Shown here: positions 34,972-41,605 of the stretch, in pieces | Numbering within the stretch: the first letter of the stretch is position 1 | Layout of the letters: each line of letters opens with the position of its first letter | From: Thermoplasmatota archaeon | Lineage (GTDB): Archaea; Thermoplasmatota; Penumbrarchaeia; Penumbrarchaeales; Penumbrarchaeaceae | Assembly: GCA_029762535.1 (NCBI GenBank) | Contig: JARVGK010000001.1 | Coordinates: 32,368 to 96,367 of the forward strand | Direction of reading: 5' to 3' | Length of the DNA stretch: 64,000 bases | Translations under genes and position numbers: made by a program | Notes under the pieces: model-generated | Database searches by the model: none | What the model saw: the letters and a program-made list of their open reading frames with translations, nothing else | Told to the model about the DNA's origin: nothing

Positions 34972-36657
34972 TCATGACCCGTCCTCCTCGATCCTGAGCC
35001 TGACCCTGTTGCCCAGTCGATCATATGCCGCTATGGAATCCTCAGAGAACGGATATCCGATGATGAGATTGATCCCGGGGAACCTCGAGAACATACTTAG
35101 GTCCGCCTTGGAGGGCCGGGCCGATCCCGACGGGTGTGAGTGGACGACCCCTTCGCCCTGCACGGCTCTCTGGGACAGCCTATCGAAAAGGGAGAACATG
35201 AAAGATGCCCTTCCCCCGGCGCCTTCGAGCACGGGTTCGATATGGGAGATATGGGGGGCCCCCCTTAGCATCGCCCCGAACTCGTTGGGGAAGGCGTCCT
35301 TGGCCCTTCTGACGATCTCCTCCACGGCCGATCTGTCAATGGAATAATCCATCTCATCTTCGAAAAGCTCTGATGTGTCCGGGTCGGTCCTGAGCCATTC
35401 ATGCTCGGATACGGCCTCCTTGAGGATCAGATAGGCTTCGGGATAGTTCTTGACGGGTCTGCGTGCGATGAGGTCCAGGAGAGCCCTCTTTCCCTTCGAG
35501 CGGTTACCGGAGCGCAGATGGACCATCACAGCAGTGGAGAGCAGAACGGATTCGATCTCATCGTCAGGGAATTTTTTCAGGTGCTTCAAGGCCTCCCGTA
35601 TGACGTTCGCTCCTGAGCGATGGTCATCGGCCCTGGCCATCCAGAGGGCCGAACGAGCCCTTGCTCGAATATAAGAGTCGGGGTCGTCACGGGATAGGCC
35701 TTCGGACACTTCGTCCATCATATGGGCGTTCCTGACCATATCCTGCTTCGCCTCCGCCGTGCCACTCTCCGCCATTGCGCATCTGAGCTCGTGCATATCG
35801 ACCTTGGCCCTGCGACCTTCAGTGTCGTTGTCGATCCTCGCTGAGGATTCGATGGCTCGCTCCAACAGGCCGATCCCTTCCTCTTCCGATCCGGCCGTCC
35901 TCGATAGTTCTTCTAACGCCAGGACCTCCAGATAAGGAAACTCCATCTCGATAGCCCTCTCCAGGGCGCCGCCCATGATCCTCCGGGCGGAGGCGGGATC
36001 CCCAGAATCGAGGCGCATTTGCGAATGGACCAGATCACATCGGATGAGATGGTATGCTCCGACCCCCTCATCGAAAGATGAGAGCTCCTCCGCAGCTTCG
36101 TAAGCGGTGTCCAGGTATCTGAACATCCCATCCCTCATGCCTCTTGCCAGCATCCTTGATTCCACATGGTCGGACCTCTCGACCAGCAATCTAGAGGCCA
36201 GCAAATGGGATTCAACGATCAGGAGGGGGTTTTGGCCACCTCTCCTTCTTGAATTAGGGGCCATCCTTTCAGAGAGGCCAAGGGCGGATACCACCGGGCC
36301 CATATCGAGGGGTATCGAATGGTCGAGGGCCGCGTTCCCGGCCCTTGCCAGGGCCAATCTCACGACCGGTCCGTTAAGATCGCCCGAAGATGCGATCCTC
36401 TCGAGCGGTTCGATGCATCTACGATACCTGCCTCTGAGGACTAGGACGTCGTGAAGACGGAACAGGGACCCCGGGGAGAGCCCTTCTCTATCGCCTGATA
36501 ACATTCTTCTGAGGAAGCCCCTCGCCCCTTCATCGTTGAGAAAGTAGGTCTCCTCTTCCGTTAGGAGGGACAGACGTCCATGGCGCACATCCATGCAGCC
36601 TCTCTCGATCTCGGCCAAATGCCCCTCGAAGCCTCCTGGCATTCGGTCACCTCGCAA
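34972..36657 (-). CDS. TPR-like helical protein with C-terminal JAMM/MPN+ metalloprotease domain
   Basis: Exact JAMM motif E...HSHPSGSARPSKAD (HxHx7Sx2D); long alpha-helical TPR-like N-terminal ~430 aa. Confidence 0.75.
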   Translation of the reverse strand: MRGDRMPGGFEGHLAEIERGCMDVRHGRLSLLTEEETYFLNDEGARGFLRRMLSGDREGLSPGSLFRLHDVLVLRGRYRRCIEPLERIASSGDLNGPVVRLALARAGNAALDHSIPLDMGPVVSALGLSERMAPNSRRRGGQNPLLIVESHLLASRLLVERSDHVESRMLARGMRDGMFRYLDTAYEAAEELSSFDEGVGAYHLIRCDLVHSQMRLDSGDPASARRIMGGALERAIEMEFPYLEVLALEELSRTAGSEEEGIGLLERAIESSARIDNDTEGRRAKVDMHELRCAMAESGTAEAKQDMVRNAHMMDEVSEGLSRDDPDSYIRARARSALWMARADDHRSGANVIREALKHLKKFPDDEIESVLLSTAVMVHLRSGNRSKGKRALLDLIARRPVKNYPEAYLILKEAVSEHEWLRTDPDTSELFEDEMDYSIDRSAVEEIVRRAKDAFPNEFGAMLRGAPHISHIEPVLEGAGGRASFMFSLFDRLSQRAVQGEGVVHSHPSGSARPSKADLSMFSRFPGINLIIGYPFSEDSIAAYDRLGNRVRLRIEEDGS

Positions 36658-37120
36658 TATTGAGGAAGGTGGATTCGACCTCGGTCAGGAACATCGACAT
36701 GTCCTTTCCCTCCTCCACGCAAAGATATATGGCAGCCGCCGGGAACAGGAGGTTGAGAGATTCCGCCGTCCTATTGATGGCCTTTATGGCCTCCTTCCTG
36801 TTCATCCCTATATCACAGACGCTCTCGATGAGCCTCTCGCTGAGCGACCGGTTGAGGGATTCGATGTTCATATCCGGGTTGGGCCGATAATCCGGTGGGA
36901 CCTCCGCCTCTTCCAATGGGAACGAAGGTCTGAACATACCACCCTCCTCGGGTCGAAGCAGTCCTGATCCGAGCGCGGCCTGATGGACCTTTCTCGCCCT
37001 GTCCGGGGGAAAGAAGCGTAGATTGTAGGAAAGTATGTTGACGAACTCGATCGTGGATAGGGACCCGCGCGCTCCGGAGGAGTAAACGGATGCGACTATC
37101 CTTTTCAGGTCCTCGCTCAT
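36647..37120 (-). CDS. hypothetical protein (archaeal DUF; possible winged-helix N-domain)
   Basis: 157-aa ORF overlapping the neighbouring gene 5' end by 11 nt; no recognised catalytic motif. Confidence 0.4.
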   Translation of the reverse strand: MSEDLKRIVASVYSSGARGSLSTIEFVNILSYNLRFFPPDRARKVHQAALGSGLLRPEEGGMFRPSFPLEEAEVPPDYRPNPDMNIESLNRSLSERLIESVCDIGMNRKEAIKAINRTAESLNLLFPAAAIYLCVEEGKDMSMFLTEVESTFLNIAR

Positions 37121-37857
37121 CTCATCCCCTCCAGCAGGAATGAGGCGCTCAGCAGCGCCCCCAGGGCGGGATGGGCTATGCGGGGCAGATCCTGCAGACC
37201 GGAGGCCCCGATATATACGCGAGCATCCTTTGGAAAGGACGATCCGATGCCCATCAGAAGGTCCTCGATCGGTCCAGCCTCGGCATCCATGTTCGAGACT
37301 ATGAATTCCGTTATCCCCAGATCGGCCATCTCGTAGATGAACTCCGCAGGGGTCATATCGGTTATGAGCTGGTCCCTGGCGAATATCCTGCTTCCATCCC
37401 AGGCGATCTCGACCATCAGGTTCTCGGTCAGCTCGAAGGAGGACGCGATCTCATCGAGCGAGATCACGCTCTTCGTGGAAACGACCGCCTTCGATGCCCC
37501 TGCCATTATTGCGTCGATGACCATCTCCGAGTATGCGATCCCCGTATCGGCGATGATCTCCGGGCTGAGCGAGCAGACATCCCTTAAAAGGTCCAGGTCC
37601 ACATCGCCCTTGGATATCCCTCCGAGGTCCATGTAGTGGACGGCTTTGAAGTGTTCGGACAGGGCCGATATGATATCGATCGCATCCTGCCTCTTCCCTT
37701 CATGGCGAAATGGATGGTATCTGTTGTCCTTGACCCAAACCGGGTGGCCTTTGAGCACTGCAACGGAAGGTATGAGCTCCACAGTGTCCGCTACTACCGG
37801 TTGGATGAACCTCATGGGGATCGACCTGTGGATCGCTTCCTGGATAGGAACCTGCAT
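37117..37857 (-). CDS. HisA/HisF-family (beta/alpha)8-barrel protein
   Basis: VHYMDLGGISKGDVDLDLL...AVVSTKSV...VEIAWDGS...ITEFIVSNMDAEAG... parallels HisA LHLVDLDGA...IGT.A...DA.DG...I.TDI..DG; overlaps the downstream gene by 4 nt. Confidence 0.5.
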   Translation of the reverse strand: MQVPIQEAIHRSIPMRFIQPVVADTVELIPSVAVLKGHPVWVKDNRYHPFRHEGKRQDAIDIISALSEHFKAVHYMDLGGISKGDVDLDLLRDVCSLSPEIIADTGIAYSEMVIDAIMAGASKAVVSTKSVISLDEIASSFELTENLMVEIAWDGSRIFARDQLITDMTPAEFIYEMADLGITEFIVSNMDAEAGPIEDLLMGIGSSFPKDARVYIGASGLQDLPRIAHPALGALLSASFLLEGMR

Positions 37858-37860
37858 GGA

Positions 37861-40352: not shown

Positions 40353-40389
40353 GGGTATTGTCCCTTGCTTGTTTATGATACTTTTTCTC

Positions 40390-41034
40390 CTATTGGTCGG
40401 ATGCGTTCTCCAGGTTCAGGCGTCTTCCCTTGATCCTGGCGATCCTCATGGCCGAGTCACGATGTGTGTCCACGGGCTTCACTGATGTGTCCCTCTCGTC
40501 GACCATCTCGATGATGTCCCTGAAGCGGTCCAGGGCCGAGATGATCCTATCTCTGTTCGACGGGTCCCCATCCCCGATGCGGATCACAGAGCTTCTGGGA
40601 AGCAGTGATCCGACCGATGCCTTGAACTTCACCGGTACATTTCCGGGTTCCGTGGTGGTGGAAGAGTTTATTAGGACCCCATCGGCCAGGACGGCAAGGC
40701 CTATCCTCAGTCCGGGATCTATGCCGAAGGCCATCCGGCGGGGTTTGAAAACCCCCTTTGCCTTGGCAACGGCCCTGCTCACCGTCATGTGAGGGTCCCT
40801 CATCGGACGAAGTATGGGCGGCCTTCCGGCAGCGAAAACGGGCCTGTCCCCCTCAACGATAGCGGCATCCACGCGCCTATCGACCCTCTCACCGGGTGCG
40901 AGGAGAATATAACCGATCCCCCTTTCTTTGAATGCTTTCACGAGATCGAAGACCTTGGAGAAATCACTCGTACACACGGCGAAGGTCAAACCATCACCCA
41001 TCGGTCGTCGGCCCCTACCGCTCTTTGCCATCAC
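40390..41034 (-). CDS. protein with C-terminal YqgF/RuvC-like (RNase H-fold) domain
   Basis: MAFGIDPGLRIGLAVLADGVLI ... IRIGDGDP ... VDERDTS parallels YqgF GlDlGtkriGvAv...GlP...DERlST; N-terminal ~90 aa unknown. Confidence 0.45.
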   Translation of the reverse strand: MMAKSGRGRRPMGDGLTFAVCTSDFSKVFDLVKAFKERGIGYILLAPGERVDRRVDAAIVEGDRPVFAAGRPPILRPMRDPHMTVSRAVAKAKGVFKPRRMAFGIDPGLRIGLAVLADGVLINSSTTTEPGNVPVKFKASVGSLLPRSSVIRIGDGDPSNRDRIISALDRFRDIIEMVDERDTSVKPVDTHRDSAMRIARIKGRRLNLENASDQ

Positions 41035-41605
41035 CGTTCCCCTTCGGTTCGTACTCGACTGCTATGATCCTGAATTTTCTGCCCTCGCCCTTCTTCTTTT
41101 TAGGCGCTTTTTTCTTTTTGGAGACGACCGCGAATTCCAGCGTCATCTCGGTAGGTTCGTCGCGCTCCTCAGAAGGATCCTCGATCACCTGCGCATCGAC
41201 GATCTCCTCGGCCATGGCGATCTTTCTCTGGAACTTCCTGTCCCTGATGAATACCTCCTTCATGCTGCGGAGCACCCTTTTCATCTTGCCATCCAGGTCC
41301 CTCTCCTCTTCCTCTATGATGAAATCGTCGAACCCCTCCTCATCGATGATGATAGCGTCGGCCGTTCTCCCATTATCGGATGAAAAACCATCATCGAACC
41401 GATCCTGCCTGGGATGGTCGAGCAGAGCTGATTTCGCCTCGTTTAGAAGCCTCATTATCTCCTCGCCCTCCTTTCTCACCGCAGGAGGCAGTTCGCTCAT
41501 CTTGTCCGGGTGATAGACCTCGGCCATCCGCCTGTATGCTATCTTGATCTCTTTGGGAGAGGCGTTTTGCGGTATCGAGAGCAATCTATAGTAATCAACG
41601 GTCAA
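41015..41605 (-). CDS. J-domain (DnaJ-like) protein with acidic middle and Lys-rich C-terminus
   Basis: DYYRLLSIPQNASPKEIKIAYRRMAEVYHPDK with the HPD tripeptide; no Gly/Phe or zinc-finger regions of full DnaJ. Confidence 0.8.
   Translation of the reverse strand: MTVDYYRLLSIPQNASPKEIKIAYRRMAEVYHPDKMSELPPAVRKEGEEIMRLLNEAKSALLDHPRQDRFDDGFSSDNGRTADAIIIDEEGFDDFIIEEEERDLDGKMKRVLRSMKEVFIRDRKFQRKIAMAEEIVDAQVIEDPSEERDEPTEMTLEFAVVSKKKKAPKKKKGEGRKFRIIAVEYEPKGNGDGKER

Follow-up and report, generated by a model that had tools for sequence, protein, structure and literature searches.

The analysed window, a 64,000-nucleotide stretch of a Thermoplasmatota contig, contains seven minus-strand ORFs between positions 34972 and 41605. 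Read from 41605 to 34972, they encode a J-domain protein, a RuvC/YqgF-fold protein, Cdc48, a PRC barrel, a HisA/F-like barrel, a DUF2240 protein and a TPR+JAMM protein. All seven ORFs were present as initially annotated, and the fold or domain assigned to each of them was correct; Pfam and NCBIfam confirm the families of six of the seven genes. Start codons were refined by Shine-Dalgarno sites and gene lengths in relatives, which gave ATG 41001 for the YqgF-like gene, TTG 40331 for cdc48, ATG 38103 for the PRC-barrel gene, ATG 37815 for the HisAF-like gene and ATG 36642 for the JAMM gene. The resulting gaps from the J gene to the JAMM gene are 13, 58, 23, 45, −4 and 4 nt. Hence, the genes are tightly packed as had been described, but with spacings of −4 to 58 nt slightly more loosely than the proposed 4–20-bp overlaps imply. 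Reading of these gaps revealed no run of five or more T residues. The block is flanked on one side by a divergent gene at 41759 and on the other by a convergent polyprenyl synthase gene that ends at 34932.

The first gene codes for a predicted class III J-domain protein of 196 aa (41015..41605, minus strand; PF00226, 3.4e-13). It has an HPD motif in the J domain, a conserved acidic middle and a Lys-rich tail; neither a Zn finger nor a DnaJ C-terminal domain was seen when it was aligned with relatives and the type I DnaJ of locus L070. Its TTG start is preceded at 7 nt by a GGAGG Shine-Dalgarno site and at ~65 nt by a TATA-like box, AAGATATTATAGA (41666..41678, minus strand). This box is one of only two upstream intergenic windows in which nine or more of 10 bases are A/T, is conserved in locus L001 and partly in L003, and is probably the main promoter of the block. 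The second gene encodes a two-domain YqgF-like protein of 203 aa (40390..41001, minus strand; longest ORF from GTG 41034). Its N-terminal domain is of a receiver-like alpha/beta type and its C-terminal one is a nuclease domain of RuvC/YqgF (RNase H-like) fold; the residues D95, E165 and E169 do not vary. An AT-rich element, AAAAAGTATCATAAAC (40371..40386, minus strand), was read in the 58 nt that separate this gene from cdc48; it is identical in L001 and has AT-rich counterparts at the corresponding position in L003 and L012. It could possibly serve as an internal promoter, in which case the block may comprise two transcription units instead of the single operon assumed initially.

The third gene (38127..40331, minus strand; longest ORF from TTG 40352) encodes a complete VAT-type Cdc48, a double-ring AAA+ unfoldase of 734 aa whose two rings both have aromatic pore loops. 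The protein scores 1024.8 bits against TIGR01243 (NCBIfam; cut-off 802.65), matches CDC48_N, CDC48_2 and two AAA domains in Pfam, and carries Walker A and B motifs in D1 and D2 as well as the pore loops KYYG (D1) and KWVG (D2). Its C-terminus, ..GLTYYG, agrees with the HbYX pattern [LVIMGAPFYW][FY]x (PMC3493965). The same type of end, ..YY[GS], occurs in 7/7 Cdc48 orthologues of the window lineage, whereas Cdc48 proteins from PAN-bearing relatives have EIA, EVA or EVS at this end and do not fit HbYX. Archaea without PAN use an HbYX-bearing Cdc48 (PMC3493965). The adjoining gene codes for a standalone PRC-barrel protein of 80 aa (37861..38103, minus strand; PF05239, 2.9e-13; longest ORF from 38130) with relatives of 80–81 aa and weak similarity to RimM. 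Adjacency of Cdc48 and PRC genes is widespread in archaea and has already been published (PMC10120694).

The following HisA/HisF/PriA-like (beta/alpha) barrel of 232 aa (37117..37815, minus strand; longest ORF from 37857) matches PF00977 (His_biosynth, 7.6e-11) but reaches 27.5 bits against the NCBIfam HisA model, the cut-off of which is 285. According to the family alignment, it lacks the catalytic Asp that HisA, HisF and PriA have on strand 1, and D11 of PriA aligns with A, V or L in the profile alignment. The protein is probably a non-HisA/F enzyme or a pseudoenzyme. Its stop codon overlaps the start of the DUF2240 gene (ATGA), by which the two genes are translationally coupled. The DUF2240 protein is a standalone form of 157 aa (36647..37120, minus strand; PF09999, 1.2e-21, full length) that consists of a helical domain at the N-terminus and a three-helix bundle at the C-terminus. 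The family profile matches Rpa1 of P. abyssi (8aa9, residues 12–60) with a marginal E-value of 0.002 in one of the two domains, pointing to a relationship between the C-terminal bundle and the AROD of archaeal Rpa1.

The last gene encodes a TPR-like superhelical N-terminal region (35362..36642, minus strand) and an AfJAMM-type JAMM/MPN+ metalloprotease domain (34972..35349, minus strand; Prok-JAB, 2.2e-10) with the upstream Glu in PNEFGAML. The JAMM motif HSHPSGSARPSKAD translates exactly from positions 35101–35142. The initial description of a perfect JAMM motif behind a long TPR-like region was borne out: the active-site residues E459, H506, H508, S516 and D519 are shared without exception by 8 homologues, and the zinc site is intact behind ~420–430 aa of TPR-like repeats. 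With 8 homologues among 5.8 billion proteins, the TPR-JAMM protein is confined to a narrow lineage. The JAMM domain itself is closest to AfJAMM; against the desampylase equivalog model it scores 19 bits (cut-off 130). Its standalone relatives adjoin NAD kinase or Thg1, and none of 70 such loci, many on short contigs, had an AAA ATPase within 8 kb. A TPR-JAMM protein outside the block, without Cdc48 nearby, is found in L100. PRC-barrel genes lie near JAMM genes in three contexts, namely in the window, in L100 and in a PRC-AspDH-Thg1-JAMM arrangement.

Linkage of these genes in related genomes had been set as a test of their association, and it was confirmed. The identical seven-gene order is present in all loci with this JAMM protein, namely L001/2, L003, L005, L012/13, L014, L091, L094, L095 and L099 (~eight distinct lineages), although the JAMM proteins share only 37–66% identity and identities to the window's proteins fall to 46% for DUF2240, 34% for the HisAF-like barrel and 32% for the YqgF-like protein. 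Insertions in these relatives occur only at the block borders (a Zip transporter in L003, a 1520-aa protein in L012 and two ORFs in L005) and never in the interior. Since the same order recurs across JAMM-bearing loci, the block is more than a chance co-location. The flanking CysRS, RVT_3 and polyprenyl synthase genes are syntenic among the relatives as well. A Gar1-like ORF and an RNase H-like gene are also neighbours in the window, as is CysRS. PADLOC defence families gave no match beyond generic AAA similarity.

We also compared 76 loci of distant Thermoplasmata, in which DUF2240 is ~22–35% identical to the window's protein. In 38 of 66 of these loci the gene immediately before DUF2240 is HisAF-like (phmmer; more with an HMM), and PAN lies within 3 kb downstream of the pair in 55/58 loci. 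The PAN proteins end in M[FY]A, agreeing with HbYX, in 52 of 53 cases. The pair is flanked by thermosome, GrpE-DnaK-DnaJ, FKBP and sometimes Cdc48 genes, and in half of the distant loci compared (19/38) a YqgF-like gene follows and overlaps dnaJ. In other Thermoplasmata, the J gene/YqgF-like pair closes a thermosome-grpE-dnaK-dnaJ string. Gene pairs of unknown function stand beside chaperone or proteasome-ATPase genes in four arrangements differing in gene content and orientation; as loci that share an arrangement type are related to one another, the counts do not represent independent events. There are exceptions: L132 has HisAF-like/DUF2240 without PAN, and in a more distant lineage the YqgF-like homologue adjoins Hjc, near Lhr. 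Furthermore, an oppositely oriented MBF1-like gene lies between PAN and DUF2240 in distant lineages, and the association may reflect inherited synteny or shared regulation and not physical partnership. No PRC barrel was detected near DUF2240 in the distant loci with the narrow HMM used. The YqgF-like and HisAF-like genes, first taken for unexpected partners, turn out to be the older and more widely conserved neighbours of chaperone/proteasome-ATPase genes, with JAMM as the recent addition.

We tentatively favour, with somewhat less than even confidence, the explanation that one uncultured Thermoplasmatota lineage has, in a genuine and selectively maintained block built from older modules, its own version of a proteostasis gene island that occurs across Thermoplasmata. 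This view is based on the tight packing and conserved order, on the position of these modules by chaperone and PAN genes elsewhere and on the HbYX-type Cdc48, which differs from that of PAN-bearing relatives. Three two-gene modules (J/RuvC-YqgF-like, Cdc48/PRC and HisAF-like/DUF2240) would have been joined and the lineage-specific TPR-JAMM gene then added. Cdc48 could be the proteasomal ATPase of the lineage and dock on the 20S core, while the PRC barrel, the HisAF-like/DUF2240 pair and TPR-JAMM may act as unfoldase accessory factors, either adaptors or substrate processors. It may be speculated that the TPR arm brings the metalloprotease to a partner or substrate and that, ahead of unfolding or in the course of it, the JAMM domain cuts a peptide or isopeptide bond. 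The J protein might form, together with the RuvC-like nuclease, a separate upstream unit that stems from a dnaK operon's 3' end and is perhaps co-transcribed with the other genes. All these functional links are inferred from gene neighbourhood, and neither DUF2240, whose sole characterised relative is an RPA domain, nor the YqgF/RuvC nucleic-acid fold is an obvious proteostasis part.

A heterogeneous housekeeping operon preserved as inherited synteny, maybe co-expressed under heat or stress, in which nuclease, barrel, DUF2240 and JAMM have unrelated roles, appears somewhat unlikely to us. Some bacterial dnaK operons similarly hold ribosome-modification genes, and the modules of the block are found apart in other lineages: the YqgF-like gene by Hjc, standalone JAMM genes by NAD kinase or Thg1, and HisAF-like/DUF2240 without PAN. 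The promoter-like element before cdc48 and flanks that are equally syntenic would also fit. This reading accounts less well for insertions that spare the interior in ~eight lineages, for the recurrent pairing with chaperone/proteasome-ATPase genes despite varying content and orientation, and for the ATGA overlap. The protein-quality-control theme of the initial annotation is strengthened by the distant thermosome, GrpE-DnaK-DnaJ, PAN and FKBP neighbours and by the C-terminus of Cdc48, but its ubiquitin-like-modifier and SAMP specifics are not. That the block is a SAMP/Urm1-type module, with TPR-JAMM as a desampylase stripping modifiers for Cdc48 and the proteasome, like Rpn11, is improbable in our view. 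Intact JAMM motif and fold and the HbYX-type tail are compatible with it, and SAMP2, UbaA, Cdc48a and proteasomes are reported to act together in Haloferax TBP2 turnover (PMC4895103). In opposition to this, we detected no ThiS/MoaD, Urm1 or E1 family in a scan of most window ORFs of at least 150 aa or within 10 kb in relatives, and no plausible small ORF ending in GG; the AfJAMM-like domain falls short of the desampylase model, and its standalone relatives, many on short contigs, are linked to NAD kinase and Thg1 and never to Ubl, E1 or AAA genes.

Two further readings start from single components. Bacterial RuvX and RimM function in ribosome biogenesis, and a nucleic-acid or chromatin module, in which Cdc48, as a segregase of DNA- or RNA-bound complexes, would work with the RuvC/YqgF-like nuclease and a protein of AROD-like (RPA OB-binding) type in replication/repair or ribosome biogenesis, would match the conserved carboxylates in the RuvC/YqgF fold, the YqgF-like homologue by Hjc and near Lhr, the weak RimM similarity of the PRC barrel, the Gar1-like, RNase H-like and CysRS neighbours, and the relationship of the DUF2240 C-terminal domain to AROD (PMC10122647). 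We nevertheless judge it very unlikely, as no RPA, primase, helicase or rRNA-processing gene was found in the block or the distant loci, where chaperones and PAN are the recurring neighbours instead, and as the AROD similarity is marginal and restricted to one of two domains. In haloarchaea, the PRC-barrel proteins CdpB1-3 take part in cell division, and a cell-division module could be imagined in which a CdpB-like PRC-barrel protein and Cdc48 regulate an FtsZ/SepF divisome, with JAMM as regulator. The recurrence of PRC barrels near JAMM genes and the suggestion that Cdc48-PRC adjacency may be cell-cycle related (PMC10120694) would agree with this, yet many PRC-barrel proteins are not division proteins (PMC10120694), the window block and the related loci examined contain no ftsZ, sepF or cdpA, and the distant DUF2240 loci gave no PRC barrel with the narrow HMM. 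We therefore give this reading the least credence and consider it highly improbable.

The proteostasis island that we favour resembles several known systems in part. The Haloferax SAMP-UbaA-HvJAMM1-Cdc48a-proteasome pathway, with the PfJAMM1 desampylase, involves the same part classes (JAMM protease, Cdc48 and proteasome), and to our knowledge its genes are not organised as one operon. This pathway was the origin of the initial logic (PMC4895103), but the window's JAMM fails the desampylase model and has no SAMP/E1 gene in its neighbourhood. In the 26S proteasome, Rpn11 is coupled to the Rpt ring; here, the coupling is genomic only, the unfoldase is Cdc48 and not of the PAN/Rpt type, and no ubiquitin-like gene is nearby. 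Compared with Rpn11 and CSN5, the JAMM domain is of the minimal AfJAMM type and fused to TPR, without an MPN− partner and PCI subunits. AfJAMM (AF2198, PDB 1r5x/1oi0), for which we know of no substrate, is a standalone protein of ~124 aa, whereas the window's protein adds ~430 aa of TPR-like repeats, and AfJAMM-type standalone relatives sit by NAD kinase or Thg1 and not by Cdc48. The AROD of archaeal Rpa1 (Madru et al., PMC10122647) shares Pfam DUF2240 with the standalone family, the C-terminal half of which aligns to it. Standalone forms exist in some Thermoplasmata (PMC10122647). The standalone protein has an extra N-terminal domain, is translationally coupled to a HisAF-like barrel and lies beside proteasomal ATPase and chaperone genes and not RPA genes. 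Like the Cdc48 of the Thermoplasma VAT/Cdc48-20S system (Forouzan et al., PMC3493965), the window's Cdc48 is a double-ring protein with an HbYX-type C-terminus from a phylum in which PAN is often absent; its docking on 20S is predicted from the C-terminal sequence. Gene order can also be compared with the Cdc48-PRC neighbourhood of Zhao et al. (PMC10120694), the text of which mentions neither JAB nor HisA. There, too, a small PRC-barrel gene lies directly 3' of Cdc48, whereas in the window HisAF-like, DUF2240 and TPR-JAMM genes are added downstream and the J and RuvC-like genes upstream.

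Seven co-directional ORFs on the minus strand (34972-41605) encode, from 41605 downwards, a J-domain protein, a YqgF-like (RuvC-like) protein, Cdc48, a PRC barrel, a HisAF-like barrel, a DUF2240 protein and a protein joining a TPR-like arm to a JAMM domain. Family searches mostly confirmed the labels of the initial annotation (DnaJ, Cdc48, PRC, His_biosynth, DUF2240, Prok-JAB). Based on Shine-Dalgarno sites and on how long the genes are in relatives, later starts were assigned to five of the genes (ATG at 41001, TTG at 40331 and ATG at 38103, 37815 and 36642; minus strand), after which the intergenic gaps measure 13, 58, 23, 45, −4 and 4 nt. 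Runs of five or more T were not detected between the genes, and the block thus combines a common direction and short gaps with the lack of an internal terminator, as in an operon. A TATA-like element (AAGATATTATAGA) lies about 65 nt upstream of the J-protein gene and is kept in relatives. The largest gap, before cdc48, holds the AT-rich element AAAAAGTATCATAAAC, of which the related locus L001 has an identical copy; AT-rich boxes also occur before cdc48 at the matching position in L003 and L012. This element may be an internal promoter. Therefore, the block may be transcribed either as a single operon that has an internal promoter or as two units, one comprising the J protein and the nuclease-fold protein and the other reaching from cdc48 to the JAMM gene. 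Neither Rfam nor tRNA scanning gave a match in the window. On the plus strand, the divergent neighbour of the block (41759-42163) looks Gar1-like by eye and lacks a Pfam match; it is followed by a gene for an RVT_3/RNase H-like protein (42204-42596, plus strand; 1.5e-14) and then by the gene for CysRS, and this trio also flanks the block in relatives.

Conservation of the linkage in related genomes, which the initial annotation had named as a check, was observed. The TPR-JAMM protein is rare, with eight homologues among 5.8 billion clustered proteins, and the identical copy carries the annotation Candidatus Thermoplasmatota. The complete order of J protein, YqgF-like protein, Cdc48, PRC barrel, HisAF-like barrel, DUF2240 and JAMM protein is the same in all loci of relatives with this TPR-JAMM protein (L001/2, L003, L005, L012/13, L014, L091, L094, L095 and L099), in which identity to the window proteins falls as low as 37% for the JAMM protein, 46% for DUF2240, 32% for the YqgF-like protein and 34% for the HisAF-like protein. 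The flanking genes for CysRS, the RVT_3/RNase H-like protein and a polyprenyl synthase are also largely syntenic among these relatives, and the block-bearing genomes therefore constitute one lineage. At the edges of the block, L003 has gained a Zip transporter, L005 two ORFs and L012 a protein of 1520 aa; inside it, none of the block-bearing loci has an insertion, which argues for selection on its contiguity.

Elsewhere in the window, a 1246-aa ORF (54209-57949, minus strand) combines a DnaA ATPase domain of the bacterial type (PF00308, 2.2e-34, aa 932-1082), unusual in an archaeal contig, with a C-terminal double zinc ribbon. A 902-aa RNB-domain protein similar to RNase R/II (3e-90) is encoded at 58082-60790 on the minus strand. 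Four very large ORFs of 1046-1978 aa (26061-29201, 30323-33496, 44129-47338 and 47539-53475, plus strand) have counterparts in relatives that carry CARDB, PKD and Big domains.

The Cdc48 protein scored 1024.8 bits with TIGR01243 (cut-off 802.65) and matched CDC48_N, CDC48_2 and two AAA plus lid domains; it possesses the N domain composed of a double-psi barrel and a beta-clam. Walker A and B motifs are present in both rings, with the pore loops KYYG in D1 and KWVG in D2. Its C-terminus, ..GLTYYG, fits the HbYX motif for docking to the 20S proteasome, defined as [LVIMGAPFYW][FY]x by Forouzan et al. (PMC3493965), who described an HbYX-bearing Cdc48 activating 20S for archaea that lack the proteasomal ATPase PAN. 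All seven Cdc48 orthologues of the lineage end in YY[GS]; in four relatives that possess PAN, the Cdc48 terminus is EIA, EVA or EVS. Judged by this tail, Cdc48 is probably the proteasomal ATPase of the lineage. The PRC barrel encoded next to it (PF05239, 2.9e-13, 50.1 bits, cut-off 21.2) represents an adjacency that has already been published (PMC10120694). The J protein (PF00226, 3.4e-13) contains the HPD tripeptide within an invariant YHPDK and belongs to class III, having neither a zinc finger nor a DnaJ C-terminal domain. Alignment with the DnaJ of a distant Thermoplasmata locus (L070) showed that the Gly/Phe region, the CXXCXGXG zinc finger and the C-terminal substrate-binding domains of type I DnaJ are absent, and its score with TIGR02349 was 52 bits at a cut-off of 377.

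The label 'YqgF-like' had been given by eye and is supported by a confident structure model (pLDDT 89.9), predicted solely from window and database proteins, and by an RNase H-like fold with conserved acidic residues; D95, E165 and E169 are invariant in 28 members. The N-terminal domain of the model resembles a receiver-like alpha/beta fold. In Pfam and NCBIfam no match was obtained, and by sequence the protein is not a member of RuvX, RuvC or DUF460 (E=0.069 and 13 bits with DUF460, cut-off 28). It represents a family of its own, with a receiver-like domain at the N-terminus. A lineage at 35% identity (L006-L011, ~9200-10860) carries the gene divergent from that of the Holliday-junction resolvase Hjc and near an Lhr-type helicase, where it adjoins no J-protein gene.

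The HisAF-like protein bears the His_biosynth (beta/alpha)8 signature (PF00977, 7.6e-11, 42.3 bits, cut-off 23.6), and its family profile matches the structures of PriA, HisA and HisF at about 3e-7. At the position of the catalytic Asp of strand beta-1 (HisA D8, PriA D11, HisF D11), the whole family carries other residues such as A, V or L; most members retain the second Asp (D130), but in the window protein it is displaced or missing. With the NCBIfam HisA models it reached 26-27.5 bits at cut-offs of 229-285. Given these residues and scores, a label as histidine-biosynthesis enzyme should be avoided for this gene. The protein encoded next matches DUF2240 in full length (PF09999, 1.2e-21, 77.3 bits, positions 1-143 of 144), and the C-terminal half of DUF2240 aligns to the three-helix bundle of AROD, a domain of archaeal Rpa1, in P. 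abyssi (profile against 8aa9 residues 12-60, E=0.002). The alignment agrees with Madru et al. (PMC10122647), who regard DUF2240 and AROD as the same domain and mention that standalone forms exist in Thermoplasmata. In a full HMMER search, standalone proteins of this kind, about 155 aa long, formed a broad family of 193 clusters at 50% identity.

A subgroup of distant DUF2240 proteins sharing ASMD[LM]RWF was used as an anchor to scan GTDB species genomes, yielding 76 loci (L015-L090), all from Thermoplasmata or Methanomassiliicoccales-type MAGs, whose six-frame ORFs were searched with the window proteins and HMMs. The HisAF-like gene lies directly 5' of DUF2240, overlapping or a few nt apart, in 38 of 66 loci with enough upstream sequence according to phmmer, and in more according to HMMs. 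PAN is encoded within 3 kb downstream of DUF2240 in 55/58 loci (~10000-12400 in locus coordinates), with an MBF1-like HTH gene of opposite orientation in between; FKBP follows PAN in one group and TruD in another. The PAN proteins end in M[FY]A, which fits HbYX, in all but one of 53 cases. In about 28 loci, a thermosome-grpE-dnaK-dnaJ string runs divergently from the HisAF-like/DUF2240 pair, and a YqgF-like gene overlapping dnaJ closes this string in 19 of the 38 loci with enough flank (L070 2855-9169, minus strand, and about 19 others among L032-L090). Other loci have a thermosome and a TPR-zinc-ribbon protein upstream, FKBP 3' of PAN and Cdc48 4-10 kb away. From these neighbourhoods with chaperones and PAN, we infer that J protein/YqgF-like and HisAF-like/DUF2240 are old pairs. 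Both stay near protein-folding and -unfolding machines; gene content and orientation vary from one arrangement to another. No JAMM gene was detected in the 76 loci, and no PRC barrel with a narrow PRC HMM. One high-GC subgroup (L025-L065, 'type D'; e.g. L054 3530-3766, L036 6756-7016), in which ORF calls are unreliable, shows no detectable HisAF-like gene and has instead a conserved stretch of about 80 aa without Pfam match directly 5' of DUF2240. In many loci of L018-L064, the gene directly preceding the pair (e.g. L042 7885-9117) encodes a double zinc ribbon and TPR repeats in about 410 aa; homology of this protein to the TPR arm of the JAMM protein from the window was rejected, as BLASTP showed no similarity.

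The JAMM domain of the last block gene (Prok-JAB, 2.2e-10) has the MPN fold and the complete zinc/catalytic motif E-Xn-H-X-H-X7-S-X2-D (HSHPSGSARPSKAD, encoded at 35101-35142), with E459 in PNEFGAML and H506-S-H508-x7-S516-x2-D519 invariant in the eight homologues. For the TPR-like arm, the other label given by eye, the structure model (pLDDT 78) shows aa 10 to 432 as all-helical. The JAMM protein next to Cdc48 is active-looking and may have zinc-dependent (iso)peptidase activity. A metagenome scan with this domain and AfJAMM (AF2198, a minimal JAMM protein) as queries revealed four more copies of the block, one TPR-JAMM protein elsewhere and 70 standalone AfJAMM-like genes. The TPR-JAMM protein outside the block (L100 6030-8354, 624 aa; JAMM domain 49% identical) adjoins a divergent gene for a 168-aa PRC barrel and has no Cdc48 within 8 kb. 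None of the 70 standalone genes, many of them on short contigs, has an AAA ATPase within 8 kb; they lie (L101-L170; e.g. L117 5693-8363, L132 6131-7361) directly 3' of NAD kinase in 38/71 loci and of Thg1 in 19/71. Because the standalone relatives are found near NAD kinase and Thg1 and lack a nearby AAA ATPase, the link between JAMM and Cdc48 is specific to the window lineage. A PRC barrel is encoded at most 4 kb upstream of JAMM in 9 of the 37 loci with at least 3 kb of upstream sequence, and one clade of standalone genes (e.g. L117) has the order PRC barrel, aspartate dehydrogenase (AspDH), Thg1 and JAMM. A looser JAMM-PRC association thus recurs in three contexts. A HisAF-like/DUF2240 pair about 6 kb from standalone JAMM genes (L131, L132) was dismissed as a coincidence, with unrelated metabolism genes in between.

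The initial annotation had also suggested processing of SAMPs, the ubiquitin-like modifiers of archaea, and nothing beyond the active-looking JAMM protein next to Cdc48 was found in its support. ThiS/MoaD, Urm1 and E1 families were absent among the window ORFs scanned (most ORFs of at least 150 aa) and within 10 kb in relatives, and a check of small window ORFs for a GG end gave only implausible candidates for ubiquitin-like proteins. Because archaeal SAMP genes are usually unlinked, SAMP processing may still apply, with low probability. With the desampylase equivalog NF041370 desamp_Halo (HvJAMM1/PfJAMM1 type), the JAMM protein scored 19.1 bits at a cut-off of 130. A role in anti-phage defence was rejected; PADLOC returned only generic AAA matches (IetA, TRIP13) for Cdc48 and no match for the other six block proteins.

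All functional claims for the block genes are based on genomic context in uncultured genomes. The best-supported interpretation is that, in this lineage, parts of a proteostasis island of Thermoplasmata were brought together in one compact block. The J protein and the RuvC-like nuclease would then descend as a module from the 3' end of a dnaK operon, and the PRC barrel, the HisAF-like/DUF2240 pair and the TPR-JAMM protein would be candidate accessory factors. The main rival is co-regulated or inherited synteny of genes that are functionally separate, which fits the modular break-up of the block in other lineages; on the other side stand the uninterrupted order and the selection on contiguity for which it argues. 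Smaller rivals are a nucleic-acid-directed role, to which the RuvC fold and AROD point, and a role in cell division, to which the PRC barrel points.

A more far-reaching version of the compaction reading, which we regard as rather improbable, holds that the HisAF-like pseudo-barrel and standalone DUF2240 are unrecognised cofactors of the AAA+ ATPase that feeds the 20S proteasome, which would be PAN in most Thermoplasmata and the HbYX-bearing Cdc48 here. The TPR-JAMM protein would bind to this Cdc48 in the manner of a primitive Rpn11-like 'lid' enzyme, removing a tag or cleaving substrates during unfolding, and the proteins together would amount to a simple archaeal equivalent of the regulatory particle.

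To our knowledge, little has been established about how archaeal proteasomal ATPases choose and process their substrates, and beyond SAMPs very few cofactors have been described for PAN or archaeal Cdc48. The block and its relatives nominate four candidate cofactors, namely the PRC barrel, the HisAF-like barrel, DUF2240 and TPR-JAMM, and the RuvC-like protein, tied to J-protein genes, is a fifth candidate. In the literature searched, we found neither the TPR-JAMM fusion with its fixed place in a Cdc48 block, nor the HisAF-like/DUF2240 pair in the constant company of PAN and chaperones, nor the succession of dnaJ and a RuvC-like gene. The Cdc48-PRC adjacency (PMC10120694), standalone AROD (PMC10122647) and the HbYX-bearing Cdc48 (PMC3493965) are known from earlier work. 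If the JAMM enzyme does not work with Cdc48, a genomic context has still been assigned to three 'dark-matter' families; if it does cooperate with this HbYX-bearing ATPase, the enzyme would represent a minimal Rpn11 analogue acting on the proteasome.
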